From Patescibacteria group bacterium (GTDB taxonomy: Bacteria > Patescibacteriota > Microgenomatia > UBA10105 > UBA927), in assembly GCA_041753515.1 (NCBI GenBank), contig JBGSUE010000040.1, positions 8,290 through 72,289 of the forward strand: a stretch of DNA of 64,000 nt, given 5' to 3'. This document shows, piece by piece, positions 17,707-61,014 of the stretch. Within the stretch, counting starts at the first letter, position 1; every line of letters starts with the position of its first letter. The position numbers were made by a program, and so were the translations under genes. Under the pieces are notes generated by a model that was given only the letters and a program-made list of their open reading frames with translations, was not told the origin of the DNA and did not search any database.

Positions 17707-19263
17707 ATGAATGTAATTATGAGATTAACGAAAAATTTTATTCTTTTCTTTTTTATCGCCCAGATATACATATTCCTCTCCAATTATCATCTTCTGATTC
17801 TTGCGTCCCATACGCCGCAAGGCGCCAGATTTACGTGGAACCATATTGCCTACTGGTCCATGGACCACAATGTCTACCTGTCTGTCATCAATCAGGGAGC
17901 GCGCGGTGAGTGGCTCATGCGGGATGCGTACACCGCAGAGCCCACACATCCGACGTTTTTCTATTTCTTCTATATACTTCTCGGGAAAATAAGCGGTGCC
18001 CTCAACATCCTGCCTGATACCGCGTATCTGTGGGCTAAACTTATCGGCGTTGAATTTTTTGTCCTGTCTCTGTACTTTCTCAGTAAAAAAATACTGGGAA
18101 AGAATGGCATATGGGCTTCACTTCTTGCACTGTCCATAAGCGCCCTGCCGGTCCTCAACTGGGATACCCGCTACTACCATGAATTCTGGCCCTGGTGGGC
18201 CCGCTTTGATGCAATCCTGCGTCTGGACAACATGCCCCACTACCTCTGGAGCTGGGGACTATTATGCCTCTTTGCCGCCACCTGGTTTTCATATATGAAA
18301 GGAAAAAAAACTTATCTTCTTGTGCTATCTTCTATCTTCTCCCTTCTATCCTCTATGTTCCTCCCCTCGTCCGCCATCCCCATCATCGCGGGTCTGGGCG
18401 TCCTGTGGCTGCTATCCAAAAAACACCGCACCGGCACAGCTTTTTTTGTAGCAGCAATCGTCGCCATTCCGCTCCTATTAACCTACCGGGAAAAATTCAA
18501 CGGTTTTCCATGGACTGAGTGGTACCTATTTGAACTTGACACATGGAACCGCCAGGCAACCCATTTCAATATCGAATTTTTGCTTTCAGCCGGATTATTA
18601 CCAATCCTGGCATTGGTCGGCATACGGAAAAATAATCCTTCCTCCATTTTTCTGGCAGTGTGGGCTTTCCTACCCTTTTTTCTTCTCCCTTTCTCCTCAC
18701 TCCTGGGGCTCTCCAAATACCGCCTGGCATCAACCGGCGTCTTTATCCCATTCGCGCTTTTAAGCATTCAGGCTATTCAATATTTCAAAAAAACCGGTGT
18801 TTTGCTGATATGCATCTCTATTGCTTTTTCAATCATCACATCACTTTACATTTTCACCAATCTCAACCGCACCGCCCAAGAATACCCTGTTTACGCAAAC
18901 GTGTATATTCCAAAAGAAATGATGGATATTTTTTCATATCTCAATACGAATGCAGACGCCACCGATGTGATTGTGAGTGACTGGGTCAGCGGTAACCTAT
19001 TCCCTGTTTTTACACCCGTTACGGCATTCACAGGCCACCCTGTCCACACAAGAAACTTTTTCGATAAAACCGCATGGTATGGATCATTGTACCGGGGAGA
19101 ACTGACACAAAAAGACGCGGAAACAAAGCTTGGGGAATACCGGATTACATATATTCTTCACGGACCTGCGGAAAAGAGAATCGGTGTATCGCTGTCAGCA
19201 TATACGTTCCTGAAAAAAGTGTATGTGATGGGAGACTATAAATTATACAAAGTAGAATTATGA
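17707..19263 (+). CDS. polytopic membrane protein of an uncharacterised GT-C-like paralog family (member 1 of 7)
   Basis: N-terminal signature FTWNHIAYWSMDHNVYLSVINQGARGEWLMRDAYTAEP. C-terminal signature AYTFLKKVYVMGDYKLYKVEL. More than 10 TM segments. Confidence 0.55.
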   Translation: MNVIMRLTKNFILFFFIAQIYIFLSNYHLLILASHTPQGARFTWNHIAYWSMDHNVYLSVINQGARGEWLMRDAYTAEPTHPTFFYFFYILLGKISGALNILPDTAYLWAKLIGVEFFVLSLYFLSKKILGKNGIWASLLALSISALPVLNWDTRYYHEFWPWWARFDAILRLDNMPHYLWSWGLLCLFAATWFSYMKGKKTYLLVLSSIFSLLSSMFLPSSAIPIIAGLGVLWLLSKKHRTGTAFFVAAIVAIPLLLTYREKFNGFPWTEWYLFELDTWNRQATHFNIEFLLSAGLLPILALVGIRKNNPSSIFLAVWAFLPFFLLPFSSLLGLSKYRLASTGVFIPFALLSIQAIQYFKKTGVLLICISIAFSIITSLYIFTNLNRTAQEYPVYANVYIPKEMMDIFSYLNTNADATDVIVSDWVSGNLFPVFTPVTAFTGHPVHTRNFFDKTAWYGSLYRGELTQKDAETKLGEYRITYILHGPAEKRIGVSLSAYTFLKKVYVMGDYKLYKVEL

Positions 19264-19976
19264 AAACGACCGTCATTTTACCGGCACACAATGAAGAAGA
19301 GGTCATCGGCAAGATGGTTACTATGATCAATTCGCTTTTCGATACATGGGTATCCCAGTTAATTGTCGTTGACGATTGTTCAAGCGACAAAACAGCGCTC
19401 ATAGTGAAAAAACTGCAAAAAAAGGACAATCGCATAGTGCTCATCCAAAGAAATCCTCCAGGAGGTGTCGGGCTTGCACTGCGGGAAGGACTCAAACATG
19501 TAGCAAAATCGTCTGACTGGATACTGACGCTTGATGCGGATTTTACCCGCAATATTCCTGATCTTTATGAATTTTTTGCCAGTACGAAAGGTGTCGATGG
19601 ATTGATAGGATCACGATATATGATGCCAAACTCTCTTGTGAGATACCCGTTTTTCAAAAAAGTTTTCAACAGGCTGTTCCACCTTGCGGTCCGCATTATT
19701 TTCGGCGTCACAAATCATGACCTGACGAACAATTTCAAACTGTATAAAAAATCTATGTACCTGAAGCTCCCGCTGTCTGAAAACAGCTATGCCATAAATG
19801 CCGAAACCGGACTGTATCCCATTCTCATGGGATATAAAATAAAGGAACTTCCCGTCACCTGGTACGCGAGAACTCATGATGAAGGGATTTCAAAATTCAA
19901 GCTTCTGTCATTCGGTCCCGCGTACGGACGGGTCATCCTCAATGCATTCAGGCTTTTTCGACAACGACGAGGATAA
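19260..19976 (+). CDS. GT2 polyprenyl-phosphate sugar synthase (DPM1-like)
   Basis: VILPAHNEEE...VVDDCSSDKT...LDADF...GSRY. ATGA overlap with the upstream GT-C gene. Confidence 0.8.
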   Translation: MKTTVILPAHNEEEVIGKMVTMINSLFDTWVSQLIVVDDCSSDKTALIVKKLQKKDNRIVLIQRNPPGGVGLALREGLKHVAKSSDWILTLDADFTRNIPDLYEFFASTKGVDGLIGSRYMMPNSLVRYPFFKKVFNRLFHLAVRIIFGVTNHDLTNNFKLYKKSMYLKLPLSENSYAINAETGLYPILMGYKIKELPVTWYARTHDEGISKFKLLSFGPAYGRVILNAFRLFRQRRG

Positions 19977-20649
19977 AGGGGCAGAAAATATCCCGTATCC
20001 CGGGTATTTTTTCAACAACACTGTGTAGCTTCGTAACAAACGGATATCTGTTAATGATTTCCGGAGGAAAAAAACCGAATTTCTTCACGATCTTCACGCG
20101 CATACCTGCATCTGTACACCCGGCCAAAAATCGCCCTATATAACTCGTATATGTCCCTTTTTCAATTTCCCACGTCATATCGCGCCTCAGAAGTATGGCT
20201 AAGAGGTGCCAGGGACTGATGGGATTATTTTCCACAAATATCATCCTGCCTCCTTTTTTCAAATGTTTGGATACATTTCGTGCAACCGACTCGACAAAGT
20301 CCGGAACATGATGAAGTATAAAAAAACCGACCACACTATCAAACATGCTCTTTTTTTGCATCTGAATTCGTGTGAGGTCAAGTACTGATGCCTGTATATT
20401 ATTACCTTGAATCTTTTTTTTTAGTGAATCAATTTCATTCTCCGATATATCAGTCGCGAGCACTGTTTGGACATGATGGGATAGCTCAAACGTAAACCTT
20501 CCCTGCCCTGCCCCGACTTCCAGAATAGCATCTTGTTTTGATATCCACTGCTGAATAATACCAACAATAAATCGCGCATAGGGTTTATTACTTTCAGCTT
20601 TCAGATATTCTGGATCTACCGAGTTGTAAAAATTTTTCTGAGTACTCAT
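19948..20649 (-). CDS. class I SAM-dependent methyltransferase
   Basis: Motif I ILEVGAGQGRFT. Confidence 0.7.
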   Translation of the reverse strand: MSTQKNFYNSVDPEYLKAESNKPYARFIVGIIQQWISKQDAILEVGAGQGRFTFELSHHVQTVLATDISENEIDSLKKKIQGNNIQASVLDLTRIQMQKKSMFDSVVGFFILHHVPDFVESVARNVSKHLKKGGRMIFVENNPISPWHLLAILLRRDMTWEIEKGTYTSYIGRFLAGCTDAGMRVKIVKKFGFFPPEIINRYPFVTKLHSVVEKIPGIRDIFCPFILVVVEKA

Positions 20650-23771: not shown

Positions 23772-23792
23772 AGCGTAGAGTATAATACATTC

Positions 23793-24650
23793 ATGGAATT
23801 ATGGTTTCTGTATGCAGTCGGATCGGTTGTTTTTCTTGCCACATTCTCGCTTTTCACCAAAAAACTGTTCACAAGAGGGTTTGATCCGCTCCTCTACGGC
23901 GGGGCAATGCAGTTTACCGTCGGCGTCATGGCGATCCCGCTGGTATTAATCTACGGATTTTCATTTGATGTTTCTTTCAAAACCGTGACAATTCTTCTGG
24001 TGAGCGGCTTTGTCTACGCTGCCGCCGCATCGCTCAACTATTACGGTCTGTCAAAAACTGAGCTTTCCCGCGCTGCCATCCTCACCTCAACTGCCGCAAT
24101 CTGGGGCATGGTCTCGGGATTCGTATTTTTGGGTGAACCGTTCACCTCCCAAAAAATTCTTGCCATCGTCTGCATTATTTCGGCCATTCTGCTGATCGAA
24201 GGAAAAAACAACAACCTGAAGTTCGCAAAATATGATCTCTTTATCCTCGCCTCGGCTATTTTTTATGCCGTTGGTGCGTCTCTTGATAATATTCTGGTCA
24301 GTCACTCCGATCCGTTTTCCTATCTTATGGTCTCATTCCTGACGGCAGGCACCACAATGCTTCTCATGCATTCACGCCATAATGCGGCTATAGTCCGATC
24401 CACGGCCAGACAAAAGGATTTTATAAAAATGCTCATGCTCAATTCATTTTTTATCCTTTTATCGTATGCCATGATTTTTTCGGCGTATGAAGCGGACGGT
24501 GAAGTATCTGAAGTGTATGCCATCGAACAACTTGAAACCGTACTGACAGCTTTTCTGGGTATACTCATCCTGAGAGAATTCACACGTCTGCCGTACAAAC
24601 TCATTGCAGCAATGCTTGCATTCGCCGGACTCATGATGCTCAAAAAGTAA
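23793..24650 (+). CDS. EamA/DMT-superfamily transporter (start trimmed to MELWFLYAVG)
   Basis: 10 TM segments and two EamA-like halves. The untrimmed start at 23754 would overlap the dus start. Confidence 0.7.
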   Translation: MELWFLYAVGSVVFLATFSLFTKKLFTRGFDPLLYGGAMQFTVGVMAIPLVLIYGFSFDVSFKTVTILLVSGFVYAAAASLNYYGLSKTELSRAAILTSTAAIWGMVSGFVFLGEPFTSQKILAIVCIISAILLIEGKNNNLKFAKYDLFILASAIFYAVGASLDNILVSHSDPFSYLMVSFLTAGTTMLLMHSRHNAAIVRSTARQKDFIKMLMLNSFFILLSYAMIFSAYEADGEVSEVYAIEQLETVLTAFLGILILREFTRLPYKLIAAMLAFAGLMMLKK

Positions 24651-24745: not shown

Positions 24746-26254
24746 ATGATGCTTCTTGTGATTCTTCTTATACTCAGCGCAACCGTTGCAAACATGAGTG
24801 CGTTTATTGCCCAAATCGCAGCCCAACCGTCCAATACTGTGTATCTTGGGACCATCCATTACTGGGAAGACTACTTTTTTCTTCTCAATCATTTTTTTCA
24901 GGGAGCTCACGGACAGTGGTTGGCGGTAAACCAGCTCACCCACGATATTCCCGGCACCACAATCATTTATTGGTCCAATGTTCTCATGGGAAAAATCGGC
25001 GGACTCTTCGGATTGTCTCCCCAATTCACATACTCCCTCAGTGTTCTTATATTGACGTTTCTTTCCCTTGGCGCACTCTTTATTCTGATTCAAAAACTCG
25101 TACCGGAGAAAAAAAAAGCGCTTCTGGCATTTTTCTTTGCCGTCACAGCCACATCATTACCCAACCGTGTCGTATCCGGAGAAACCGGACAGATGATCAC
25201 CTGGCCGTTTCAGATCTGGGGCACGACCCATCTGGCTCTGGACCGCTTAGGCGGTGCCCCCCATCATTTATTTCGAAATGTGCTTGCTTATATATTTTTA
25301 TATTTTCTATTTTCAAAAAAATCCACCATGTCCATTATCGTTGCCTTTTTTCTTGCTTCTGTTAATCCCACACAAGCCCTTCTATCACTTGGCATATTCA
25401 GCATCGTGAATTGGCAAGACATAAAACGGCTATTACCAACATGGGTTTCCGTAGTGTTTATGACTCTGTGGGTCAACCATGATTTACACTCGGAAGCATA
25501 TCGGGTTGCCGCGGCATGGGACGGATCCCAGAATAGTTACACGACTCTGCCGTTTCTGATGGCGTCAATTGGTCCAATTGGACTCATTAGTCTCATTGGT
25601 CTAATGAAAAAAAATTTTTCCCGTATCGAATTGTTCGGACTCCTGACAATTCTTTCAACATATTTCTATTTCATGACTCCCATCCCGAAACTTCTCCATG
25701 TTTCAAATCTACGGCTTCTTTTTCCCTCAACGCACGTATTTTTCGGCATCTTCGCCGCCAGTGGGGCGTTATATCTTTCAAAAAAAATTCCTCTCGTCCT
25801 CATCCTGATTCTCTACTCTCTTCTCACTATTCCTACTCTCGATTGGGAAATCGGCATGAAAACGTCAAATATCAAACCGAACGACCAGCTCCTCTATCTC
25901 CCTTCCTTGGTGCATGAAGGATTCGTGTATCTGTCTACACAAACTCCCTTTACGGACGTAACCCTCGGCAATCCGGGAAGCCACATGGACATCCTCATTC
26001 CGGCCCTCTCCGGCCACACAACCTATGTTGCCCATTTCTTGGAAACGAAAGATTACCCCCGAAAAAAGGCAGAAACGGAAAAATTCTATTCACTGCAGTT
26101 GACACCGGATAAAGCACAAAAATGGCTGACCGAAAATACCATCAGATATATTTTGTTTACGAAGTATGATGGAGATAAAACGAAGTTTGAAGAAAATTAC
26201 AGCTTCCTGAAACCCGCATTTTCCAATCCGGAAAGTACGGTCTATCAATTCTAA
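24746..26254 (+). CDS. GT-C-like paralog family member 2
   Basis: PSNTVYLGTIHYWEDYFFLLNHFFQGAHGQWLAVNQLTHD. C-terminus NYSFLKPAFSNPESTVYQF. Confidence 0.55.
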   Translation: MMLLVILLILSATVANMSAFIAQIAAQPSNTVYLGTIHYWEDYFFLLNHFFQGAHGQWLAVNQLTHDIPGTTIIYWSNVLMGKIGGLFGLSPQFTYSLSVLILTFLSLGALFILIQKLVPEKKKALLAFFFAVTATSLPNRVVSGETGQMITWPFQIWGTTHLALDRLGGAPHHLFRNVLAYIFLYFLFSKKSTMSIIVAFFLASVNPTQALLSLGIFSIVNWQDIKRLLPTWVSVVFMTLWVNHDLHSEAYRVAAAWDGSQNSYTTLPFLMASIGPIGLISLIGLMKKNFSRIELFGLLTILSTYFYFMTPIPKLLHVSNLRLLFPSTHVFFGIFAASGALYLSKKIPLVLILILYSLLTIPTLDWEIGMKTSNIKPNDQLLYLPSLVHEGFVYLSTQTPFTDVTLGNPGSHMDILIPALSGHTTYVAHFLETKDYPRKKAETEKFYSLQLTPDKAQKWLTENTIRYILFTKYDGDKTKFEENYSFLKPAFSNPESTVYQF

Positions 26255-27716: not shown

Positions 27717-29363
27717 ATGGTCATGAAAAAATATTTTGAACCCGTCTTTGTCGCCCTCTTCATCATCTTCATGACGGCGGTCAACCTGTGGCACGTGATC
27801 TACCACGCACAATCACGGCCGCCAAATACGGTATATGTGGGCATCTCCCACCACTACGAAGACTACTTCTACTACCTCTCCCAACTCACCCAGGGAGCGC
27901 AAAAATCGTGGGAAGTGAAAAATCTCTACACATCCGAACCCATCCCGGCGACTCCTCTCTGGTGGGTAAATATTATACTCGGAAAAGTGTCAGCACTCCT
28001 ACATGTCCCTGTATTTACCGTATATACAGCATCGCTTTTTGCCGCGACGCCACTACTTTTGGCAACGCTGTACCTGGGCTCGCGTATGCTTTTTCCAAAA
28101 AATACTAACCTTCGTCTGGGGACTCTCCTCATAACTGTTCTTGCAACAGCAGGTTATAGATATATTGACGGTCGGATTGATCCAATTGTGTATTTCTATA
28201 ACTATACGAGCTCTCTCAACAGGCTTGGCGGTGTCACGCATCTCATGCTCCAAAACATCCTGTCTCTTCTGATCATTCTTTATGGCTCCGCGATCATTGA
28301 ATCCGACAAAAAAATAAGTAGAAATACCCTTATTGTGAGCATAAGCGCATTCCTTCTGGCTTTCATCAACCCCGTATATGTTGTCCTTGATGCTGTGGCA
28401 ATCTCGCTTGTTGCGCTAACCCGTATTCGCAGAAAACTTCTCACGAGTGCCCTTATTATCGGCATTCCACTGCTGATTCCATATATCCTCATGCAACGCA
28501 CATTTGATATCCCCTTCTACCAGTATTTCCGCTGGTGGGAGTCATCGGTCCTTCGCGCCCCCACATACAACTTTTGGCACTCGTACGGCATCCTCATCTA
28601 TCTTCTCCCTTTGGGGGTTATCCCATTTTTAAAAAAAGGCGGGGCTCTGCGGTGGACCGGACTTGTCTGGGCAGTTCTCCCAGTCATCATGTATTGGTCC
28701 CCCATCCCCGGCATTCTCCACATCCCGGTCTTCCGTCTCACCCAGCCGCCACAGTACCTAATCCTCGGGGCCATTGCAGCGGAGGGCTTATGGATCCTTT
28801 GTCATCCCGAACTTGTTTCGGGATCCCGTTTCATTAACTGGATGCTGAAACGAGTTCAGCATGACGGGAAAAAAATATACAATCATAATAATTCTAAAAT
28901 AATTCTATTTTGGTTATTAACTACTCTATTTCTCATTAATCAATACCCGATGCTCTACGAGGAAGTGCGGGCGCGGCGCGACAACTACACCCTTATCTCA
29001 TGGCTCAACCATATGGATAAAAACCTGTACGAAGGACTTATGACTTTTTCTACCATGCCGCATAATCAGATAGCTCTTGCATTCAACAATCTGGAACTCA
29101 TCGTGCCGGCAATTTCGGGACACACAGTTTACCAGGCCCACCGGTCGCTGACCCTTGAGTATCCGCGCAAAATCGGTGAGGCAGCAACATTTTTCACTAT
29201 GCAGCTTACCCCGTCCGATGCGCTGTCATTTCTTAAAACCAACACCATCGGCTACATCCTCTGGAGAAAATCAGACGGCGACAGACGCGAATTTGAGGCA
29301 TACTATCCATTCCTCACTAAAACCTATGAAAATTCTACTCTCATCATCTATACTGTGCAGTAA
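27717..29363 (+). CDS. GT-C-like paralog family member 3
   Basis: PPNTVYVGISHHYEDYFYYLSQLTQGAQKSWEVKNLYTSEP. C-terminus YYPFLTKTYENSTLIIYTVQ. Confidence 0.55.
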   Translation: MVMKKYFEPVFVALFIIFMTAVNLWHVIYHAQSRPPNTVYVGISHHYEDYFYYLSQLTQGAQKSWEVKNLYTSEPIPATPLWWVNIILGKVSALLHVPVFTVYTASLFAATPLLLATLYLGSRMLFPKNTNLRLGTLLITVLATAGYRYIDGRIDPIVYFYNYTSSLNRLGGVTHLMLQNILSLLIILYGSAIIESDKKISRNTLIVSISAFLLAFINPVYVVLDAVAISLVALTRIRRKLLTSALIIGIPLLIPYILMQRTFDIPFYQYFRWWESSVLRAPTYNFWHSYGILIYLLPLGVIPFLKKGGALRWTGLVWAVLPVIMYWSPIPGILHIPVFRLTQPPQYLILGAIAAEGLWILCHPELVSGSRFINWMLKRVQHDGKKIYNHNNSKIILFWLLTTLFLINQYPMLYEEVRARRDNYTLISWLNHMDKNLYEGLMTFSTMPHNQIALAFNNLELIVPAISGHTVYQAHRSLTLEYPRKIGEAATFFTMQLTPSDALSFLKTNTIGYILWRKSDGDRREFEAYYPFLTKTYENSTLIIYTVQ

Positions 29364-49978: not shown

Positions 49979-51724
49979 TCATCGATACTCATAAATGAAT
50001 ACGTTTCCGTTTTCGTAAAGTTTCGTCAGAAACGGATAAAATTCATCCAAATTTTTCCCTCCGGCATCTTCGCGCTCCTGCGGCCCGAAAAATATGTAGT
50101 GCAGTCCGGTTTCTGACAAAAACTGCCGGGCATCGTCAGGCGGCATCGTCCCGCTGAAAAATGCTTTCACATACATCTTTTTCTCCTGGCTTCCCACCGT
50201 GTTGTCATGCCCCACATACACGGTATTACCGGAGTAGACGGGGATATAATTGCCGGCAGTTGTCTGAGACAAAATGGCGGTATCCCTGCTTGTGTTGTCC
50301 TGAAGCCAGACAATGGCATCGATAAAATCGTTTAAGGGATACATCACGTAACTGCCTGTGGGTACCAACGGATACGCGGCAACTATTTTATGAACCACGA
50401 AGTCCCTTTGCCAGAGCCATGACGAATACATGTGCATGAGATTAAGCACCAATAAACCTAATGGAATCACGTAGATCAGATCAGGAAATGTATATAAGAG
50501 TTTTGATTTCTTTTTATCAAAACCTTTATTTTTAATATATTTTTCAATGGAATACCTGAGAGAAAGATACAGTTGATAAAAAAGATAGACACTCAATATT
50601 CCTAATGGAATGTGGACAATCATTTCGGAAAACCGCAACGGACTCTGTTGGGGAATAAACTGAAAGATAAACAGGAGCGCTGCCCATGCTAATACCCAAG
50701 CAACGGGCAATATCATGAGCTTGTCACGTTTTTTCAATGCAATGACTGCTCCAAGAACCCCAAGCGGCAGCATGATGCCGACTGCCTGCAGATATTCGTA
50801 ATACTGAAACGGCAGTGGCCGGAGAACATCGGCAAGTGCAAGCTCCTTCCAGGGGTAAAATGTCACCATCAACTGTAAATACGCCATCGACGGCAAGGCG
50901 ATAATCGACAAAAAAAGCCTGCCGAATACATGTCTGCCAAACCATACCCGGAAGTTTTTTTTCACCGGCCGATCAAACCAGAATTCAAGTACTGTCATGA
51001 CGGCAAATCCTGCGTACACAAATACAAGCCCCGGCGGGAAAATAAATCCGAGAACAAATGACAGTATCCCTAAAAATATCCAATTGCGCGGTTTTGCTAT
51101 GGTGGCAAGATCGGATCCGGCAAAAAGAACAAATGCCAACAGAATCTGTCCGACGAGCAGGTGCGGAATGAAAGTAATCCGCTGCAGGGAATCCATCACA
51201 CTCCACCATGCCATGTATCCTCCGATGCGCAAGGATCCGTCATCCATGGTTACGAGTTTCGGATATGTACTCGCTGTGACGGCAAACAAAAATCCAAGAA
51301 TGGAAAGTCCGTATTTTGTGAAAGATCGTTTAGCAATTTCTGCAGTGACTATCAAGAGTACAAATCCGAGAACAGTCCGGGTTGCGTGATATATATCACT
51401 TGTCCGGTGCCAATTGATATGCACCCACTTCCCGATCCATCCGAGAACCAGATAAAATACGTGTACAAAAGAGCCCTGATGCGGTTCGCTCGTATACTTT
51501 TCGTGAACTGTAAGGTGTCCTTCCAATCCCTGTCTAATACGCGAGAGATAGAAATTAAAATCCGTATAGAAATTATGCACCAGCTCGAATCGCCGCTCAG
51601 GCCGTATGGTATCCGCTTTACCAATCTCAAAAAACATCGGCCAGAGGGAAAAGATGACAAAAAACAGGGAAAGGAGTACAAATGTGTAAGGTTTTAACAA
51701 CGCGAGCAATTTATTCATAGTCAT
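49979..51724 (-). CDS. GT-C-like paralog family member 4
   Basis: RRFELVHNFYTDFNFYLSRIRQGLEGHLTVHEKYTSEP. C-terminus FYPFLTKLYENGNVFIYEYR. Confidence 0.55.
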   Translation of the reverse strand: MTMNKLLALLKPYTFVLLSLFFVIFSLWPMFFEIGKADTIRPERRFELVHNFYTDFNFYLSRIRQGLEGHLTVHEKYTSEPHQGSFVHVFYLVLGWIGKWVHINWHRTSDIYHATRTVLGFVLLIVTAEIAKRSFTKYGLSILGFLFAVTASTYPKLVTMDDGSLRIGGYMAWWSVMDSLQRITFIPHLLVGQILLAFVLFAGSDLATIAKPRNWIFLGILSFVLGFIFPPGLVFVYAGFAVMTVLEFWFDRPVKKNFRVWFGRHVFGRLFLSIIALPSMAYLQLMVTFYPWKELALADVLRPLPFQYYEYLQAVGIMLPLGVLGAVIALKKRDKLMILPVAWVLAWAALLFIFQFIPQQSPLRFSEMIVHIPLGILSVYLFYQLYLSLRYSIEKYIKNKGFDKKKSKLLYTFPDLIYVIPLGLLVLNLMHMYSSWLWQRDFVVHKIVAAYPLVPTGSYVMYPLNDFIDAIVWLQDNTSRDTAILSQTTAGNYIPVYSGNTVYVGHDNTVGSQEKKMYVKAFFSGTMPPDDARQFLSETGLHYIFFGPQEREDAGGKNLDEFYPFLTKLYENGNVFIYEYR

Positions 51725-51859: not shown

Positions 51860-53422
51860 TTATTGGATACTTACTTTATATATCACGACATCATTGTTTT
51901 GGTAAACAGGTAAATAAAACGGATTTTTCAAAAATCCGTCCGTTTCTTGGTACCCCTTGTAGACAAACCGGATATTGTTGTCGTTCAGGAATTTTTCCGT
52001 CGACGCCTGGTCCCACGCACCGTCAAAAAAATTGTTTTTGTTTGCCTCCATGGCAAGACCTGTCTCATACGGCCAGCCCTGCTTGTTGCCATACACATAA
52101 TTATGGGAATATAAAAGAATATTATTGGCAGCTTCGTACGATGCAATCACCGTGCTTTCCACAGGAGTATTTTTATCCAGCCACCCGTATGCGTCCATCA
52201 TGCCGGTTGAGGGAAATTTGAATAATGAATACGACATATAATCCGTATTGGCGATTAATCCTGTTTTGAAATCATGATAGAAAGCCGGGAGCAGGAGGAG
52301 TATTACGGTTAAAATAATAATTTTGTTACGCAACAGATATACTGCCCCGTACGCCATGGGAATAAAGTAGAGGGACTGGATAAACCGCACGCGCTCCGCC
52401 CGAAAATATTTATACAGAAAAAAGAAAAACAGGAGCTGCAAGATAAGCCACACGGCCATATACACGGTTTTTTCATCACGGAGTTTTGTACGCAGCAATG
52501 ATACTGCAATACCGATTGATCCGATCCAAAACACCGGTCCGAAGGCAATAAGATCCCCCGCAATCGTCTGCCAGCCGATAGTCTGGCCGGAGACGTACTC
52601 TTCAAACGACAGGACCCAGTTTGTGGGATACTGATGGGTATAGTGGTAGGAAATAGCCATTCCTACCGCCAATCCGCTCACCGTTGATACATACGTCGTT
52701 GCTGCTGTTTTTTTCGTAACAATTCTATACAGAATCATCACGCCGGATAGTGAACACAAAAGGAGTGAAAATGCCGGATGCATCGTTCCCATTACCGTTC
52801 CCATGACGAATGATGCCCCGACTATCCATTTTTTCCTGTGATATTTGTTATTCAGATTGATAAGAGTTAAAAAAAGAAAGAGTAATGCGCCAAAAAGGTA
52901 GTGCGGACGGCTGGCAAACCTGAGGGCTACGTTGTCGATAAACCCGAACTGTGTCAAAACTCTGTATCCGCCCTGCGCGTAATATCCAAACGAAGTAGAC
53001 AGGGCAGCAAGCATTCCTGCTTGAAGTGCAAATGTTTTTCTGCCACCAACAACCAACAGAAGCCTGATCATGAAAACGAAAAAAAGTATCCCTCCTGAAA
53101 TTCGTATAAGATGATACCCGACCGGAGCCGATACTCCCAAAAAACCGGTCAGCTTCCCGCCCCAGACATAGAGCAGATGGACGGTTGAAAACGACTGAGG
53201 CGGCGGGACAGAACGGATACGGAAATAATTGGCGCCATACATCCCTTCTTTTACATAGGAGACATATCCCACATAGTCATCCACAAACCCTTCCATCCAG
53301 GTATATCCGCGGCCTTCCGGTTTAGTGAAATACGGCACCACCGTCCCCGCCATCCCCAATGAAACAAAAAGGATTGAAAGAATAACAGTAATTACCGCAA
53401 ACTTCCCTGATGATTTGTTCAT
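51860..53422 (-). CDS. GT-C-like paralog family member 5 (start trimmed to MNKSSGKFAVITVILS)
   Basis: PEGRGYTWMEGFVDDYVGYVSYVKEGMYGANYFRIRSVPPPQSF. C-terminus NPFYLPVYQNNDVVIYKVSIQ. Confidence 0.55.
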   Translation of the reverse strand: MNKSSGKFAVITVILSILFVSLGMAGTVVPYFTKPEGRGYTWMEGFVDDYVGYVSYVKEGMYGANYFRIRSVPPPQSFSTVHLLYVWGGKLTGFLGVSAPVGYHLIRISGGILFFVFMIRLLLVVGGRKTFALQAGMLAALSTSFGYYAQGGYRVLTQFGFIDNVALRFASRPHYLFGALLFLFLTLINLNNKYHRKKWIVGASFVMGTVMGTMHPAFSLLLCSLSGVMILYRIVTKKTAATTYVSTVSGLAVGMAISYHYTHQYPTNWVLSFEEYVSGQTIGWQTIAGDLIAFGPVFWIGSIGIAVSLLRTKLRDEKTVYMAVWLILQLLFFFFLYKYFRAERVRFIQSLYFIPMAYGAVYLLRNKIIILTVILLLLPAFYHDFKTGLIANTDYMSYSLFKFPSTGMMDAYGWLDKNTPVESTVIASYEAANNILLYSHNYVYGNKQGWPYETGLAMEANKNNFFDGAWDQASTEKFLNDNNIRFVYKGYQETDGFLKNPFYLPVYQNNDVVIYKVSIQ

Positions 53423-54278: not shown

Positions 54279-55522
54279 AAAAGAGAACCATTGAAATTAC
54301 TTCAATACTTTTTTTTGCAATTCTTGCTTATTTTTTCAAATACTGGCTTATTGAATTGGCTCCCCAGCCGGTGGTATTTGACCAGACTGAATACCTGAGT
54401 TTTGCCAAATTGATGATTGAGAAAGGTCTGTATACACCGACCTCACGCACATACGGCTACCCCCTGTTTCTTATTCCCCACATACTGCTGTCGCAGGATC
54501 CTGTCCGGTCCACAATCAACACACAGGTAGTTCTCGATGTAGCAAGCGGCATTCTTCTGTATATTCTTGCGTATAAACTATTCAGGTCAAAAATTGCTGC
54601 ATGGGTCGCAATGCTCATCCAGTTCTTCAACCCGTTTACCAGCGCATATGCCGGCGTCATACTTACGGAAACAGTTGCTGTTTTTTTGAATGTGGTAATA
54701 CTTTTTCTTTTCTATGCGGCATCCGTAACAAAACGGACAATGAAAAATATATCGCTCGTATTACTTGGTATAGTAATCGGGTATGCTTTTGAAACCAGAC
54801 CGGCGATCTATCTGTGGGGCATAGCATCTCTCGCAATCATTGCCTACCTTATTCCTAAAAAAAGGGTTGCCGCGGCAATTCTTGTCGGTTGCGGCATACT
54901 CCTCTCAAGCCTTTATCAGATTTCTGCAAATCTCACGCTCCACGGACAATTTTCTTTTATAACGGTAGACAGTTTCTTTGCACGGGAACTGTACGACGGG
55001 ATTCTGGTAAAAAACGCACCTCTTTTTCCAAATACCCCGGAGGCATACCCTCCTGAAATGCGTACCATGTATCAGGAATACTCTGTGCTGCCAAAAAATG
55101 CAATTGAACGCAAGGCTATGGCCGATAAATATTTCAACAAGGCCGTAAATCTCATCAAAGCTGATCCGGGTGACTATGTCCTGGCACGGTTTAAAAAAAT
55201 GTGGAGTATGTGGCAGAAAGAAAATATATTTTTCTACTGGGAACCGGATTTCGAAAAACACAGACTATTCACTTATACGGCAAATCTCGTAGTGCTTTCT
55301 CTGTCAGCATTTGGATTGCTGAAGAATATAGTAAAAGGCGGGAGTTTCCATATTTTTACGCTCTCAATACTTCTCTTTATGACCATTGCAATTTCCGTCT
55401 CACATGCGGAACCCCGCCTTACGATTCCTGCCTACCCCATTTTATTTCTCTATGCCGGCTACTCAATCAATGCGCTCATACACAATATACGAACTGTTTC
55501 TGATCATCTCACGGAATCCTGA
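54275..55522 (+). CDS. ArnT/PMT_2-like GT-C membrane glycosyltransferase (start trimmed to MKKRTIEIT; ATGA overlap with the HAD stop)
   Basis: LAPQPVVFDQTEYLSFA...NPFTSAYAGVILTE...KMWSMWQKENIFFY. Confidence 0.65.
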   Translation: MKKRTIEITSILFFAILAYFFKYWLIELAPQPVVFDQTEYLSFAKLMIEKGLYTPTSRTYGYPLFLIPHILLSQDPVRSTINTQVVLDVASGILLYILAYKLFRSKIAAWVAMLIQFFNPFTSAYAGVILTETVAVFLNVVILFLFYAASVTKRTMKNISLVLLGIVIGYAFETRPAIYLWGIASLAIIAYLIPKKRVAAAILVGCGILLSSLYQISANLTLHGQFSFITVDSFFARELYDGILVKNAPLFPNTPEAYPPEMRTMYQEYSVLPKNAIERKAMADKYFNKAVNLIKADPGDYVLARFKKMWSMWQKENIFFYWEPDFEKHRLFTYTANLVVLSLSAFGLLKNIVKGGSFHIFTLSILLFMTIAISVSHAEPRLTIPAYPILFLYAGYSINALIHNIRTVSDHLTES

Positions 55523-57025
55523 TACAGATATCTGCTCGGGCGATACAATGTATCGAATACTATATATTCGAATAATAGAATCTTTAACAAAATCGTCTGT
55601 TCCGTATATGAGTTCATTGAGTGCACTCGTTTTTTCTTCCGGCATATAGGTAAACGTGGGATGGCCTGCGAGCGTCCTGTGGGGAGTAAATGCGGGAAGA
55701 AGCGTTGAGAGTGTCTCAGGGGCGGCAACGACTCCGGGATTTTGTACAGAAAGAAATTCAATAACTGTCATCATATCATCGGGAACCATAACGAGAGGAT
55801 TAGTCATATTCTTTTCAACATACATATCCTGACGGCTCAGGCTAATGGCAAATGTCGGCATACCCAAAGCCACACTTGCCAATACAACGATATACATCCA
55901 TGTCCTCCTCATGGAAAACGGTTTCACGAAAACGGTTATCGCCAGTGTTGCCAGGAGCGCTGAAGGGATATACCCGGCTGACTGCAGATATCTGCCGTTT
56001 GAAACCGGAATAAATTGTGTGAAAAGCCCCAGTCCCAAAAATGGGAACAGAAACCATCCGAGAATGGTGTTCCACCGAAAATCGCGGCGATAGAGAAGAA
56101 ACGGGATTGATACGATAGCTATGACCCCCACTATTCCAAGCGTTTCCAGATACCCCATCATATTGATGGGGTACTGTACAAACCTCTCCCAATCACGGAA
56201 AGCGGTCCACGGAAAAGTGCTCCCCTGGATTTTCATCATGAAAAACACCTGGGCAATAAGGATAAGATAAAAAATCTCGATCTCGCCGAATTTGAATTTA
56301 TAGAGCCGGAGAAATCTGTAAAACGTCAATACGATCCCTGTGGCGATGGCCACACTCAAGGCCATCAGGCTTGCCGGATTGAGCCACACACTGACAAGAG
56401 CGCAACATGTTGCCCCGATAGTCAACCGGAATGACTGCAGTGTTTCTTTCCTTCTCTCAACCATACGCATGAAAAGTATCATGGCGGCGATCATAAAGGC
56501 ATTGGAAAATGTGTGATGCGGAAGCCATGAAACACGTAAGATCGGATCAAAACCGGTCCAGAATTCACCAGCCTGATACAGCGCTCCGCCTTTTGACCAC
56601 CAGAACGGAGCACCAAAACACATAAATAACAGCGCAATAATTCTCTGATGCAGAGTAAACCGCAGTTCAACAGCCAGTACATAGCCCGTAAACAGAAGCA
56701 TTGATCCTCCAACAATCCGTAGTACCGTATACATGGCAGGAATGCTTAAATGAAATATTTTTGCGGCCATGCCGGCCAGAGGAAAAAATGTGTTGATAAG
56801 CTGTGGCGTAAAAGTTTCCGGCGTATAGTTTGAAGTGAGAAGAAGCGATCCGTCATACCCCTGCCGCATTAGAGACAGATACCAGTAGTAGTCCTGTTCA
56901 TAATTGTGAACGAAAGGATACTCAAAGCCTTCAGGCATTTTTACTTGATACAGAAATGTCTGATACAAACTGACAACAACAAAAAATACTATTGCTGCGG
57001 CAACAATAAGATATCCCTTTTTCAT
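55463..57025 (-). CDS. GT-C-like paralog family member 6 (start trimmed to MKKGYLIVAAAIVFF)
   Basis: PEGFEYPFVHNYEQDYYWYLSLMRQGYDGSLLLTSNYTPETF. C-terminus MIRNSSYIVYERID. Confidence 0.55.
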   Translation of the reverse strand: MKKGYLIVAAAIVFFVVVSLYQTFLYQVKMPEGFEYPFVHNYEQDYYWYLSLMRQGYDGSLLLTSNYTPETFTPQLINTFFPLAGMAAKIFHLSIPAMYTVLRIVGGSMLLFTGYVLAVELRFTLHQRIIALLFMCFGAPFWWSKGGALYQAGEFWTGFDPILRVSWLPHHTFSNAFMIAAMILFMRMVERRKETLQSFRLTIGATCCALVSVWLNPASLMALSVAIATGIVLTFYRFLRLYKFKFGEIEIFYLILIAQVFFMMKIQGSTFPWTAFRDWERFVQYPINMMGYLETLGIVGVIAIVSIPFLLYRRDFRWNTILGWFLFPFLGLGLFTQFIPVSNGRYLQSAGYIPSALLATLAITVFVKPFSMRRTWMYIVVLASVALGMPTFAISLSRQDMYVEKNMTNPLVMVPDDMMTVIEFLSVQNPGVVAAPETLSTLLPAFTPHRTLAGHPTFTYMPEEKTSALNELIYGTDDFVKDSIIRIYSIRYIVSPEQISVSGFREMIRNSSYIVYERID

Positions 57026-57055: not shown

Positions 57056-58714
57056 ATGTCCAAAACAACGAAGTATATTCTGATCGGTGCAGTCGCCATA
57101 CTTGTGTTTCTCCGGCTTCATATGGGCATCACCCGTTTTTTTGACTCCGATGAAATGAGCCATATGCACTGGGCGTGGCTTGTATCCCGTGGCGATGTGC
57201 CCTTCCGCGATTTTTTCTATTACAATCTTCCCGGTTACCAATATGTGATCCTCTGGCCGTTTTTCCTGCCTGCCTCATCCGGTATTCTCATCATCACCCG
57301 CCTCTGGCAGTTTTTAATGTACCTGGCAACCGTCGTCCTTCTGTATCGTTTTACTAAACGCCTGACAAACAGTTCCGTCATCGGTCTTCTGTCCTCCGTT
57401 ATCTTTCTTGCCTTCCCCATGACATTCGATAAAACAATCGACATCCGTCCTGACATGACGATGATGCTGTTTTATCTTGCGGCGCTTGAACTTACTCTCA
57501 CCACAAAAATTTGGTCACAGTCACGGGCTTTTTTTCTTGGATTTCTCATTGCGCTCTCAATCGGTGTGACGCTCAAAACCATCGTGTTTGCCCTGCCGGC
57601 ACTCCTCTTTGTTTTTTTTACCAACAAACCAAAACCGAGCCCGATACAGACCATCACGGCATTGTCCGGGATCATTCTTCCGGCTCTTGTGTATTTTTTG
57701 TATCTTACTGTCACTGATGCGCTCATTCCCGCAATCACCATGATCACAAAAGACGCCTTTGCGGTAAATGCCGGCAAAGGCACATTCTCTCCCTGGAAAG
57801 CCTTGTCCCCCTATCCCCTTGTCTATCTGGCGGAGGGCGGCGTATCCCTCCCATGGATCATAAACACCGGAATCTGGATTCTGTCAGTTGTGGGGTTTAT
57901 CAAACTGATCCTGACGAAAAAATCCAAAAGTGCGTTTCTTGTCATATATTTTTTCTTCGGTATCATATTTCTTTTTCTCTTTCCGGCTCCGTACTTGCAG
58001 TATTTTCTCCCGCTGTCCGTCTTTGTTTCCGTCCTTGCCGCGATAGCTATCCAAAAATATCAGTCTGCCCCTTTAGCATTCGTCGTCTGTGCACTTCTTG
58101 TAAGTTCATTTTTTATCCAATATAAAGAGCGGACAGGAATAAAAAACTCCAATGCAGAACAACTCAGCGTCATCTCCTCAACGCTTGAAATGAGTCGCCC
58201 CAATGAAACATTTTATGATATGGTGGGCTCCTACATATTCCGTCCGGACGGGTTTATCCTCTGCTGCCATCCATACAATGAATTTGCCGACCGATTGTCC
58301 ACACAAGTACCGGCCCTGCGCGATTCGCTAATTGAGCGCGAAACGAAATTCATCGTCATGGACCGGACTGCTATTGTTTTCTGGTATCCCTATCCCCAAG
58401 ACCTGACATTTCTTAAATCGCATTATTTCGTATCGGAAAAAAACTGGAAAATATACCTGCATGGCTACAGATTCGGATGTATGGATGGAAAATGCACACA
58501 GTACGATATTGAAGATACCCCCGTATCACCCGCTTCATCATTTTATATTATCGGCGCCGATACTTACAGAGTGACCGTCACACCCCAAAACCAGACTGTG
58601 GCAATCGACGGCGTTTCGTACGGCAACAGTGCAACGGTCCCGTTGTCAAAAGGTAATCACACCTTCACCGCCGACCCCGCCGTCACCTCCTGGACCATTC
58701 AACTAAACAGGTAA
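57056..58714 (+). CDS. GT-C-fold membrane glycosyltransferase, ArnT/PMT-like
   Basis: RFFDSDEMSHMHWAWLVSRGDVPF is the GT-C acidic motif. Paralog of 11177-12592. The beta-rich C-terminal domain is probably periplasmic. Confidence 0.65.
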   Translation: MSKTTKYILIGAVAILVFLRLHMGITRFFDSDEMSHMHWAWLVSRGDVPFRDFFYYNLPGYQYVILWPFFLPASSGILIITRLWQFLMYLATVVLLYRFTKRLTNSSVIGLLSSVIFLAFPMTFDKTIDIRPDMTMMLFYLAALELTLTTKIWSQSRAFFLGFLIALSIGVTLKTIVFALPALLFVFFTNKPKPSPIQTITALSGIILPALVYFLYLTVTDALIPAITMITKDAFAVNAGKGTFSPWKALSPYPLVYLAEGGVSLPWIINTGIWILSVVGFIKLILTKKSKSAFLVIYFFFGIIFLFLFPAPYLQYFLPLSVFVSVLAAIAIQKYQSAPLAFVVCALLVSSFFIQYKERTGIKNSNAEQLSVISSTLEMSRPNETFYDMVGSYIFRPDGFILCCHPYNEFADRLSTQVPALRDSLIERETKFIVMDRTAIVFWYPYPQDLTFLKSHYFVSEKNWKIYLHGYRFGCMDGKCTQYDIEDTPVSPASSFYIIGADTYRVTVTPQNQTVAIDGVSYGNSATVPLSKGNHTFTADPAVTSWTIQLNR

Positions 58715-59493: not shown

Positions 59494-59514
59494 AAACGTG
59501 GTATAGTTGTTCAC

Positions 59515-61014
59515 ATGCAGGCGTTATTGTGGATCGTCATTGTTTTACTGACATCACTCTATGCATTAGGCAAATACCTCGTCGGTGTATCCCATACCCC
59601 TCCGGGATCTGTGTTTTTGGGTACAGTCCACTACCCCACGGATTATTTTATTTATCTGTCCGAGTATGCCTGGGGGCGGCACAGCTGGTTTTTCAATAGG
59701 GTTTTGCAGTCAACCGAGGCGCCTGGTGACAATCTCATCCGGTGGGTCAACGTATTCTGTGGTCATATATTCTCTCTCTTCGGCCTCAATCAGATCACAG
59801 CTTACCAAATCTCCGTTGTTCTTTTTACGGTAAGTATCATATATCTCTCATATACACTTCTTGTTAAAATATTGAAATCACGTCATGAGGCATTATACGG
59901 ATTATTCGTCTATCTGACAGCCAACGCATTCCCGGGCTGGGACGGATCAAATCTTTCCACATTCGATTTCTGGTACAACCAGGGAAATCCCCTCAACCGT
60001 CTCATCAACGTCCCCCATCATCTGTTGGGGCAAATTGCGCTCCTTGCTCTCGTTTACATCTGGATATCAAAAAAGAAAAATCTTCTTTCATTTGTGGTTG
60101 CCATCATCTGCGGCATGATTCTGGCAGGCGTGAACGGTGTGCATCTCCTGTTCGCAGCCGGCATCATGAGTGTGTCCCGTTTATCACTCCCTGTACTTTT
60201 TTCACTCATCGGCGCAGCCCCGATACTTTTATCTGTCAGGCACACATTAAGCATTCCCCCTCTCTCCAATATGATCATTTGGGAAACAAACAACCAAATG
60301 ATTCTGACCCCATGGCGGCTGTTTCTGGGATACGGCCCGATATTATTGTCCTTATTGCCTGCAACAATCATGTACTTGAAAAAACCTGACAGATTCAGAA
60401 TTTTTTCCCTTCTGTTCACATGGATCAGTCTTCTATTGTTTCTTTCCCCTATTCCAAAACTTCTTCATTTGGGAAACGTCCGGTTTCTCATACCCTTCAC
60501 TCATATACTTCTCAGCATCATGGTTATTGACATACTACGCAGAATAAAAATTCAGACAATAAAAACAATTATTGTTTCTGTATATATCGGGGTATCTGCA
60601 CTATCTTTGTATGCAACAGGGACAAAAATATATGCGCTCTACCAAAACCCCGCAAATCCCTTTTATTATCTGCCGAAACCAGTCTATTCTCTCTTTGCCT
60701 ATTCTGGAAATATATCCAAACCGGATGATGTATTTCTTTTAGGATGGCCGTACAACGCGATATTCCCTGGCATCTCCGGGTCACAATCATATTTTTCCGA
60801 AGTCCTCCTGGTAAAAGATCCGGTTGAAACCGGAAAATTGGCGGAAATATTTTTTTCAGACGAGTCACCGATCCCAGAGCGGATACAGTTTCTCAATCAA
60901 TTCGGTATCACCTACATCATTCATCGGGAAGAAACACTCTCCCCATCGTCTGGTCTTCCCATCCAACAAATCAGATCAGAAGGCGGATTTACATTATGGA
61001 AAGTCGTGAAGTGA
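59515..61014 (+). CDS. GT-C-like paralog family member 7
   Basis: PPGSVFLGTVHYPTDYFIYLSEYAWGRHSWFFNRVLQSTEAPGDN. C-terminus IRSEGGFTLWKVVK. Confidence 0.55.
   Translation: MQALLWIVIVLLTSLYALGKYLVGVSHTPPGSVFLGTVHYPTDYFIYLSEYAWGRHSWFFNRVLQSTEAPGDNLIRWVNVFCGHIFSLFGLNQITAYQISVVLFTVSIIYLSYTLLVKILKSRHEALYGLFVYLTANAFPGWDGSNLSTFDFWYNQGNPLNRLINVPHHLLGQIALLALVYIWISKKKNLLSFVVAIICGMILAGVNGVHLLFAAGIMSVSRLSLPVLFSLIGAAPILLSVRHTLSIPPLSNMIIWETNNQMILTPWRLFLGYGPILLSLLPATIMYLKKPDRFRIFSLLFTWISLLLFLSPIPKLLHLGNVRFLIPFTHILLSIMVIDILRRIKIQTIKTIIVSVYIGVSALSLYATGTKIYALYQNPANPFYYLPKPVYSLFAYSGNISKPDDVFLLGWPYNAIFPGISGSQSYFSEVLLVKDPVETGKLAEIFFSDESPIPERIQFLNQFGITYIIHREETLSPSSGLPIQQIRSEGGFTLWKVVK

Follow-up and report, generated by a model that had tools for sequence, protein, structure and literature searches.

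Oligosaccharyltransferases (OSTs) of the STT3/AglB/PglB type (GT66) contain 13 transmembrane (TM) helices. The proteins reported here resemble them, and especially the short archaeal AglB-S, in a GT-C(A) membrane fold and in carrying an Asp in the first outer loop; all GT-C(A) enzymes have, at the tip of the juxtamembrane helix JM1, an Asp that is essential (PMC12041299). They also resemble the mycobacterial arabinofuranosyltransferase AftA (GT85), which has a core of 11 TM helices (TM3-13) and a periplasmic alpha/beta sandwich over the active site, and in which a catalytic Asp (D128) in the first long loop and a donor-phosphate-binding Arg (R415) provide a precedent for the residues discussed below (PMC10265970). 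The proposed use of many distinct GT-C enzymes on one envelope glycan, with polyprenyl-phosphate-sugar donors, would be a likeness to the mycobacterial Emb/Aft/Mpt set. In the GtrA/GtrB/Gtr*, CsbB/GtcA/YfhO and ArnC/ArnEF/ArnT systems, as for some of the family genes here, GT2 and GT-C genes form adjacent or overlapping pairs, and the GT2 proteins found here resemble Und-P/Dol-P sugar synthases. The GT-C enzyme of these systems works outside the membrane, and such pairing of GT-A and GT-C genes is a hallmark of multi-component transmembrane glycosylation (PMC8035078; PMC11127046).

Here we analysed a 64-kb stretch of DNA (hereafter the window) from a Gottesmanbacteria-like (CPR) source, in which seven paralogs lie within a large sugar-biosynthesis locus. 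The seven genes, intact as the first-pass annotation had listed them, are complete ORFs with an ATG start and a single stop, and encode proteins of 518, 502, 548, 581, 520, 520 and 499 aa (p1-p7). On the + strand are p1 (17707..19263), p2 (24746..26254), p3 (27717..29363) and p7 (59515..61014), and on the - strand p4 (49979..51724), p5 (51860..53422) and p6 (55463..57025). A mechanical ORF list extends p5 and p6 upstream to TTG; the ATG starts of the first-pass annotation are preferred, since with them both N-termini line up with those of the rest of the family. By a single base p3 overlaps the next ORF, which encodes a 403-aa multi-TM protein, and p4 heads a same-strand gene run in the order p5, p4, a 424-aa GT-C-like protein, a methyltransferase and a YfhO-like protein. 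The window also encodes many sugar-modifying enzymes, at least five other GT-C-type proteins and six intact GT2 proteins, of which five are small.

Several lines of evidence showed that the proposed seven-member family reflects real homology. Pairwise identity between the paralogs is 18-28% (about 20%), and the BLASTP links are transitive (p2-p3 1e-51, p2-p7 2e-39, p1-p4 8e-24), the weakest-linked member being p5 (2e-9 to p4 and 3e-6 to p6). An HMM of 132 relatives, built with every window sequence excluded, matched all seven over their full length with E-values of 1e-80 to 3e-150. HMMs that included the seven found exactly those seven among the 139 window ORFs of at least 100 aa. The family comprises 2,481 clusters (50% identity) at E<=1e-30, and related loci hold 2-5 paralogs each, often with a small GT2 gene alongside. 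Among the paralogs, p4 yielded the largest number of close relatives (at least 428 at E<=0.001), and the best 120 of these are 47-71% identical to it. A recent local expansion of the copies was rejected, since orthologues from other genomes are 30-50% identical to single paralogs, whereas the paralogs share about 20% with one another. Every relative that carries a name, like each of the five genome loci, belongs to Candidatus Gottesmanbacteria or Patescibacteria, which bears out the CPR origin that had been guessed from the letters of the window.

The statement that these proteins cannot be placed in a named sequence family was supported, with one qualification. Neither Pfam (at E<=1, PMT/PMT_2 and STT3 included) nor NCBIfam gave a match for the seven, and the membrane part had no match in a sequence search of solved structures. 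Among 75 relatives there was no common Pfam match and no STT3 match at E<=0.01; one relative matched DUF6541 at 1.7e-10, and two further relatives did so at E of about 0.1-0.2. An hhalign comparison of the family profile with one PMT_2-type, one YfhO-type and two unplaced membrane proteins of the window gave nothing. Named members are annotated as hypothetical, except for two p4 orthologues, which carry the UniRef label 'Glycosyltransferase RgtA/B/C/D-like domain-containing protein'. A generic GT-C label is thus already present in one database, and it gives the family a nominal likeness to the PMT_2/RgtA/B/C/D-like proteins (ArnT/PMT clan). The current PMT_2 model, however, matches none of the seven paralogs, and neither p4 nor the two labelled orthologues match it even at E<=10. 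The family is a large one of the GT-C(A) class that lacks a model in Pfam and NCBIfam, its named members coming so far from Patescibacteria only.

The seven genes encode integral-membrane proteins of the GT-C(A) fold. Two independent AF2 models, both of high confidence, back this assignment, and the Foldseek search gave a best E-value of 5e-8, against STT3, with a query-normalised TM-score of about 0.55. AglB, STT3 and PglB were among the best matches, and AftA, ALG12 and Pmt4 scored level with the OSTs. The models contain the GT-C(A) N-terminal module, that is, TM1, two juxtamembrane helices in outer loop 1 and TM2-7. The two models, together with the positions of the basic turns, suggest 11 TM helices in total. 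The chain would begin with a cytoplasmic N-terminus and TM1, followed by a long outer loop with the two juxtamembrane helices, ten more TM helices and an alpha/beta domain on the outer face; in p1 the predicted layout places JM1 and JM2 in outer loop 1 and the start of the C-terminal domain at about residue 393. Homology links the C-terminal domain to the core of its AglB/STT3 counterpart. In the PDB profile search the family profile matched the AglB-S2 C-terminal domain (3vu0) at E 7e-5, and it was the C-terminal domain alone that matched. The WWDYG motif of 3vu0 and 3vgp aligns to variable family positions 425-429, where W426 occurs in 13 of 139 sequences and G429 in 55%.

Conservation was then mapped with p1 numbering. 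The sole invariant column (139/139 sequences) is D53 in the first outer loop, which sits in the helix 48-65 near its N-terminal end. R172, H178 and R339 are conserved in 96%, 97% and 97% of the sequences, respectively, position 276 is acidic in 85% and D/E168 is present in 68%. Equivalents of D53, R172, H178, R339 and the acidic residue 276 are kept in all seven paralogs: D53, R172, H178, E276 and R339 in p1 (with E78, H444 and K454); D42, R167, H173, D259 and R323 in p2 (with H430 and K440); D49, R169, H175, E275 and R340 in p3 (with H475 and K485); D55, R182, H188, D299 and R364 in p4 (with H506 and K515); D49, R168, H174, E274 and R346 in p5; D45, R164, H170, E280 and R345 in p6 (with H455 and K465); and D43, R162, H168, E257 and R323 in p7. 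The GH..T..K motif of the C-terminal domain is missing from p5, the most divergent member, and from p7. The acidic residue conserved in the long loop that follows TM7 may occupy a position similar to that of the OST EL5 glutamate. Since the acidic residues D53, D/E168 and D/E276 resemble the OST metal-binding triad, the sequence leaves room for a donor that may be diphosphate-linked.

The first-pass annotation had also described two terminal signatures and suggested a single catalytic scaffold whose periplasmic specificity domain has diversified. The N-terminal signature that follows TM1, D[YFH]xx[YL][LV][SN]xxx[QEW]G, is real and specific, as a pattern scan of the 139 window ORFs returned exactly the seven. 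The C-terminal signature survived in a looser form. The tails of p1-p7 are YKV, YQF, YTV, YEY, YKV, YER and WKV, so that a strict aromatic-(K/E)-V ending is found in just 3 of the seven paralogs and 38 of 132 relatives, whereas the pattern [ILV][YFW]x[VILFYR] is found in 99 of the 132. The notion of a diversified C-terminal domain was not supported: this domain is near-constant in length (120-131 aa), and its mean pairwise identity (0.218) is second only to that of outer loop 1 (0.247). The most variable parts are the outer loops EL4 (0.142) and EL2 (0.170) and the cytoplasmic insert between TM10 and TM11, which in p3 amounts to about 30 aa.

The gene context connects the family with GT2 enzymes. 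A small soluble-type GT2 gene (19260..19976, + strand, 238 aa; Pfam Glycos_transf_2, 1e-18) has a start that overlaps the stop of p1. Its top NCBIfam matches are dolichyl-phosphate hexose transferase and AglJ, far under the curated cut-offs, and it is a candidate polyprenyl-phosphate-sugar synthase for the donor of p1. A second small GT2 gene (16873..17616, - strand), divergent from p1, is interrupted by one in-frame TGA. Its halves each match the GT2 HMM (1e-18 and 4e-16), and it is either a pseudogene or the product of a sequencing error; a related locus (L001) has an intact GT2 gene at the equivalent position. The overlapping or adjacent pair of GT2 and family gene recurs in three related loci (L005, L004 and L007). 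Across the window and seven related loci, a small GT2 gene lies within 400 bp of 12 of the 27 family genes, with several overlaps, that of p1 included. In the window only p1 has such a neighbour, and for the other six genes the distance to the closest intact small GT2 gene is 3.6-15 kb. These GT2 proteins are closest to Dol-P/Und-P sugar synthases (AglJ, Dol-P-hexose transferase, ArnC, PpgS), at scores far below the curated NCBIfam cut-offs. Among the window ORFs scanned with Pfam, the small ORFs tested included, there was no match to GtrA, MATE or Wzx. An EamA/DMT-type transporter gene (23754-24650) lies directly upstream of p2 on the same strand with a gap of 96 bp; its product might conceivably stand in as the flippase for a lipid-linked sugar.

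These facts suggest, in our analysis, that the paralogs are probably GT-C(A) glycosyltransferases that use lipid-linked sugars and act outside the membrane, each with a different linkage or acceptor. If they work as the structurally solved GT-C(A) enzymes do, the donor would be a sugar on polyprenyl phosphate, charged in the cytoplasm and then flipped, and the sugar would be transferred on the outer face of the membrane to a surface glycan, a glycolipid or a protein. The role of catalytic base or nucleophile could fall to D53 (p1 numbering), invariant and placed at the start of JM1, and the donor phosphate could be held by Arg172, His178 and Arg339 of outer loops 2 and 5. Each paralog would form a linkage of its own or have an acceptor of its own. 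In concert with the other GT-C and GT2 genes, the paralogs may act stepwise outside the cell to build a complex envelope glycan or to decorate one, in a manner resembling mycobacterial arabinan/mannan assembly or multi-component glycosylation of the Gtr/CsbB-YfhO type. The family nevertheless differs from each of these models. AftA has two extra N-terminal TM helices and shows no detectable sequence similarity to the family; its organism and glycan are unrelated, and no DPA-pathway genes were identified in the window. In comparison with the Gtr, CsbB and Arn systems, the GT-C proteins lie outside the PMT_2 and YfhO Pfam families, a GtrA-type flippase was not found, the GT2 proteins are short and soluble-type, and up to seven GT-C paralogs of the same family share one locus.

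It is worth considering whether the seven are true OSTs of the AglB/PglB type, which would transfer a pre-assembled oligosaccharide en bloc from polyprenyl diphosphate to Asn of secreted proteins. The high structural rank of AglB, STT3 and PglB points in this direction, as do the AglB-S C-terminal domain, which alone among solved proteins matched at the sequence level, and the acidic residues in outer loops 1, 2 and 4, which lie roughly at OST metal-ligand sites. However, the family lacks WWDYG, the motif by which the +2 Ser/Thr of the sequon is bound, Pfam STT3 is unmatched, and the predicted TM helices number 11 instead of 13. The chains (500-580 aa) are shorter than the target chains in the fold search (about 650-870 residues), mono-glycosyl transferases score equally well there, and many paralogs per genome, seven in this one locus, are atypical of OSTs. 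Pfam scans of the window ORFs detected no phosphoglycosyltransferase, Wzx-type flippase or GT-B enzyme with which a lipid-linked oligosaccharide could be built, which argues against en bloc oligosaccharide donors made at this locus. We therefore regard this interpretation as very unlikely.

A further interpretation, somewhat less remote but still improbable, is that the paralogs are protein O- or pilin-glycosyltransferases of the PMT/TfpW type, which would attach monosaccharides from polyprenyl phosphate to Ser/Thr, in type IV pilins or in S-layer proteins, rather than to a polysaccharide. Three type IV pilin-like genes (3775-5372) are in the same locus, and TfpW is reported to be a pilin-glycosylating GT-C enzyme (bioRxiv 10.1101/2020.04.19.049825). 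The pilin genes, however, are at least 12 kb from the nearest family member, MIR, TPR and other protein-binding modules are absent, and Pfam PMT and PMT_2 are unmatched. Seven paralogs with many sugar-modifying enzymes suit a complex glycan better than a single-sugar modification of proteins. The GT-C fold is also found in PIGU/GAB1 of the GPI transamidase, and in parallel to these the family could consist of catalytically inert scaffolds, transporters or receptors. It is extremely improbable that the family is of this kind: the canonical catalytic Asp is invariant, the three basic outer-loop residues are more than 95% conserved despite only about 20% identity elsewhere, family genes are tightly linked to GT2 genes, and PIGU/GAB1 score far below active enzymes.

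Returning to glycosyltransferases that act outside the membrane, the sequence family is new but the kind of enzyme is known, and its general class and mechanism are well understood; the family fills a gap in the catalogue rather than introducing a new principle. Its definition would provide an annotation for thousands of hypothetical proteins and could seed a new CAZy/Pfam family. The compact OST-like scaffold of about 500 aa offers a way to study the AglB/STT3 outer domain without the sequon-binding motif. A bolder possibility, which we put forward with considerable reserve, is that of a minimal 11-TM OST-related family without WWDYG, with an AglB-like outer domain and a membrane domain that lacks sequence relatives among solved structures, whose arrays of 2-7 paralogs would assemble, with other GT-C enzymes, a complex envelope glycan or glycoprotein entirely outside the membrane from polyprenyl-phosphate monosaccharides. 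If true, ultra-small bacteria would possess an assembly line of an ER-lumen-like or arabinan-like kind, and the family might form an evolutionary bridge from OSTs to mono-glycosyl GT-C enzymes. The cell envelopes of CPR/Patescibacteria are nearly uncharacterised, yet mediate the episymbiotic lifestyle; the seven paralogs, with the other GT-C, GT2 and sugar-modifying genes, point to a heavy investment in extracytoplasmic glycan assembly.

The seven paralogs, p1 to p7, were all found to be intact, ATG-started ORFs at the positions assigned to them in the first-pass annotation: 17707-19263 (+), 24746-26254 (+), 27717-29363 (+), 49979-51724 (-), 51860-53422 (-), 55463-57025 (-) and 59515-61014 (+). 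The encoded proteins are 518, 502, 548, 581, 520, 520 and 499 aa long, respectively. In a mechanical ORF list p5 and p6 run further upstream, to TTG codons; the ATG starts are the better choice, since in alignments they coincide with where the other members begin. Identity among the seven proteins is 18-28%. They are joined by transitive BLASTP links (p2-p3, 1e-51; p2-p7, 2e-39; p1-p4, 8e-24), p5 being the weakest-linked member (2e-9 to p4 and 3e-6 to p6). An HMM made only from relatives outside the window, 132 in number, matched all seven over their full length (E 1e-80 to 3e-150). The window has 139 ORFs of 100 aa or more, and from these the HMMs that include p1-p7 picked out exactly these seven. 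The N-terminal signature, D[YFH]xx[YL][LV][SN]xxx[QEW]G, was present in p1-p7 and in no other window ORF. The C-terminal ending had been described as aromatic-(K/E)-V; this pattern holds strictly in three of the seven and is looser in the others, the tails of p1 to p7 being YKV, YQF, YTV, YEY, YKV, YER and WKV. The observation of a seven-member paralog family is confirmed.

Pfam and NCBIfam scans of p1-p7 gave nothing significant, only chance-level matches. A Pfam scan of 75 diverse relatives revealed no family common to them; one of the 75 matched DUF6541 at 1.7e-10. In a profile search against all PDB sequences the membrane part was without any match. A 14-3-3 match to 'DYFxYLSE' (E 0.4), obtained with a seven-sequence profile against PDB sequences, was dismissed as noise. 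When the family profile was compared by hhalign with four other membrane proteins of the window, YfhO-like 45614-47638, PMT_2-like 36375-38018 and the unplaced 57056-58714 and 11177-12829, no relation was found; the idea that p1-p7 are divergent copies of those families was therefore rejected. Literature searches combining CPR/Patescibacteria with GT-C enzymes or oligosaccharyltransferases (OSTs) brought up nothing about this family.

With the sequence libraries silent, the decisive evidence on what p1-p7 are likely to be came from structure prediction. In a Foldseek search with the p1 model (13 sequences; pLDDT 85.9, pTM 0.88), STT3-type OSTs came top (E 5e-8, TM-score ~0.55), followed by DPY19, AglB, PglB, AftA and ArnT. 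The model of p5, the most divergent copy (97 sequences; pLDDT 94.3, pTM 0.93), scored 20.2 with AglB, 19.3 with AftA, 19.1 with STT3B and 18.8 with ALG12 in a fold comparison. The first-pass description of the proteins as GT-C-like, outside named families and belonging to CPR was borne out on all three points. Judged by the secondary structure and by where the basic cytoplasmic turns fall, the layout is predicted to be N-in, with TM1, outer loop 1, ten further TM helices and an outside C-terminal alpha/beta domain (about residues 393-518; p1 numbering throughout). Outer loop 1 of the p1 model contains two juxtamembrane helices, JM1 (48-65) and JM2 (87-99). The 11 predicted TM helices equal in size the 'GT-C core' (TM3-13) of AftA (PMC10265970).

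In an alignment of 139 sequences, whose columns average 18% identity, D53 in JM1 is the sole invariant column. Further conserved positions are Y57 (94%), G64, G67, E78 (88%), G93, Y107, R172 (96%), H178 (97%), P220, an acidic residue at 276 (85%), G296 and R339 (97%); in outer loop 2, 68% have an acidic residue (D/E) at position 168. According to the predicted topology, the conserved residues would all lie on the outer side. GT-C(A) enzymes all carry, at the tip of JM1, an Asp that is essential (PMC12041299). For AftA, a catalytic-base role is described for the counterpart Asp, D128, and R415 touches the donor phosphate (PMC10265970). Since D53, R172, H178, E/D276 and R339 are kept in each of p1-p7, all seven paralogs look catalytically competent.

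The family profile matches the C-terminal domain of AglB-S2 (3vu0; E 7e-5). When it is aligned with 3vu0/3vgp, WWDYG, the hallmark of OSTs, comes to lie over family positions 425-429, which are variable (W426 in 13 of 139, G429 in 55%). The family has its own motif in this domain, GNxxP433-A...Y-G443-H444...T448.....K454......F461, kept in p1, p2, p3, p4 and p6 and lost in p5 and p7. A homologue search with a deep family alignment returned 12 proteins and one new lead, a 497-aa protein of Candidatus Woesearchaeota, an archaeal DPANN lineage (hhalign probability 96.7%). This protein resembles the family in the last two TM helices and the C-terminal alpha/beta domain only; the domain therefore appears to behave as a module that CPR bacteria and DPANN archaea have in common. 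The C-terminal domain had also been taken for a diversified periplasmic specificity domain, and this view was rejected on per-region identity. The domain is among the better kept regions, with a mean identity of 0.218, second after outer loop 1 (0.247), and a constant length of 120-131 aa. The most variable regions are the outer loops EL4 (0.142) and EL2 (0.170) and the cytoplasmic insert between TM10 and TM11; specificity, if encoded anywhere obvious, would lie in these loops.

In 1.84 billion cluster representatives, searched exhaustively with HMMER, 7,077 clusters matched at E<=1e-3, of which 2,481 did so at E<=1e-30; the best 150 are nearly all full-length proteins of 500-600 aa. For p4 there are at least 428 relatives at E<=0.001, the best 120 being 47-71% identical. 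Among the matches listed, no p4 relative carries a precomputed Pfam domain, and all named ones are 'hypothetical protein' of Candidatus Gottesmanbacteria, 'Patescibacteria group bacterium' or unclassified 'bacterium'. UniRef names two p4 relatives 'Glycosyltransferase RgtA/B/C/D-like domain-containing protein'; the current PMT_2 model does not match these two at E<=10. A scan of GTDB species genomes with a nine-sequence alignment of closer relatives gave five loci, all in Gottesmanbacteria; the genome that the window comes from was not among them. On these matches the window is assigned to a CPR bacterium of Gottesmanbacteria-like kind. Related loci in other genomes hold 2, 3, 3, 1 and 5 family copies within ~20 kb (L001-L005) and three each in L006 and L007. 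Best matches to a given window paralog across genomes are 30-50% identical, as against ~20% for paralogs within a genome. Recent tandem duplication was therefore rejected; the duplications are old, with the subfamilies forming orthologous lineages.

Taken together, the genes of the window make up a glycan locus, which encodes five SDR epimerase/dehydratases, two DegT aminotransferases, a hexapeptide acyltransferase, four methyltransferases, a sulfotransferase, an APH-type kinase, a HAD phosphatase, a split transketolase, a GDSL esterase, six intact GT2 glycosyltransferases (GT-A type; five small), three PMT_2-like proteins, one YfhO-like protein and several unplaced multi-TM proteins. The GT-C-type genes in these 64 kb number at least 12, namely p1-p7 and five from other families: PMT_2/PMT-like 30782-32170 (+), 36375-38018 (+) and 54221-55522 (+), YfhO-like 45614-47638 (-), and a 424-aa protein at 48611-49885 (-), whose L006 orthologue is weakly flagged as PMT_2. 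The run of p4, the 424-aa gene, a methyltransferase and the YfhO-like gene is partly kept in a 1.22-Mb Gottesmanbacteria contig, where the latter three keep their order and lie a few genes downstream of the p4 orthologue. Three large multi-TM proteins, 11177-12829 (-), 57056-58714 (+) and 29363-30574 (+), are without Pfam/NCBIfam match. 'FD(A/S)DE', similar to the acidic motif in loop 1 of GT-C enzymes of the ArnT/PMT type, occurs shortly after TM1 in the first two and is absent from the third; the first two may be further unmodelled GT-C families.

Adjacent GT-A/GT-C pairs are a signature of multi-component transmembrane glycosylation (PMC8035078; PMC11127046). The stop of p1 overlaps the start (19260) of a 238-aa GT2 gene. 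A small GT2 lies within 400 bp of 12 of the 27 family genes in the window and seven related loci, several pairs overlapping; among the window paralogs only p1 has such a neighbour. The closest likeness of these GT2s, far below curated cut-offs, is to Dol-P/Und-P sugar synthases (Dol-P-hexose transferase, AglJ, ArnC, PpgS). A second small GT2 gene, at 16873-17616 (-) and divergent from p1, is broken by one in-frame TGA near 17302-17304, with both halves matching the GT2 profile; L001 has an intact GT2 at this position beside its p1-like gene. The break is either a pseudogene mutation or a sequencing error.

An EamA/DMT-type transporter, 23754-24650 (+), is encoded on the strand of p2, 96 bp upstream of it. 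The DMT-related ArnE/ArnF are flippases for lipid-linked sugar, and a like role for this transporter is speculation. The split transketolase, whose N- and C-terminal halves are separate genes, the APH-type kinase and the sulfotransferase, at 38020-39767 (-) and 40723-42763 (-), hint at an unusual sugar, possibly sulfated or branched. Between p2 and p3 lie a HigB/RelE-like toxin (84 aa) and a ribbon-helix-helix antitoxin (115 aa), 26251-26859 (-). Three tandem type IV pilin-like genes with an N-terminal methylation motif, 3775-5372 (-), adjoin 5314-7383 (+), which encodes 689 aa with about ten or more TM helices and C-terminal TPR repeats. Over window positions 1-4000 the GC content is 0.354; elsewhere in the window it is 0.43-0.46. 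Scanning the window for Rfam families and tRNAs gave no match.

From the fold, homology, conserved residues and gene context, we consider it probable that p1-p7 are GT-C(A) enzymes acting stepwise on an envelope glycan outside the cell. Each would take a sugar from a flipped polyprenyl-phosphate carrier, the presumed donor, and move it to a putative acceptor on the outer face. D53 would be the base or nucleophile, and R172, H178 and R339 may hold the phosphate. The paralogs would differ in linkage or acceptor and, with the other GT-C enzymes, would build or decorate a complex glycan.

True OST activity is very unlikely, given the missing WWDYG motif and STT3 sequence match, the 11 TM helices, the number of paralogs and the absence from the window of genes for lipid-linked-oligosaccharide assembly. 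The window showed no phosphoglycosyltransferase, Wzx flippase or GT-B enzyme, which argues against en bloc lipid-linked oligosaccharide donors. The three pilin-like genes at 3775-5372 speak for O-glycosylation of pilin or S-layer protein, a role that we regard as unlikely for the family; these genes and 5314-7383 are possible glycosylation targets or a pilin-glycosylating enzyme. A non-catalytic role of p1-p7 is at odds with the invariant Asp and hardly credible.

Both the GT-C enzyme class and the chemistry it performs are well known, and new sequence families continue to be added to it, as with GT136 in 2024 (PMC11127046). The seven paralogs belong to a large family without a Pfam/NCBIfam model, which combines a compact 11-TM core with an AglB-like domain without WWDYG and is expanded in Gottesmanbacteria.
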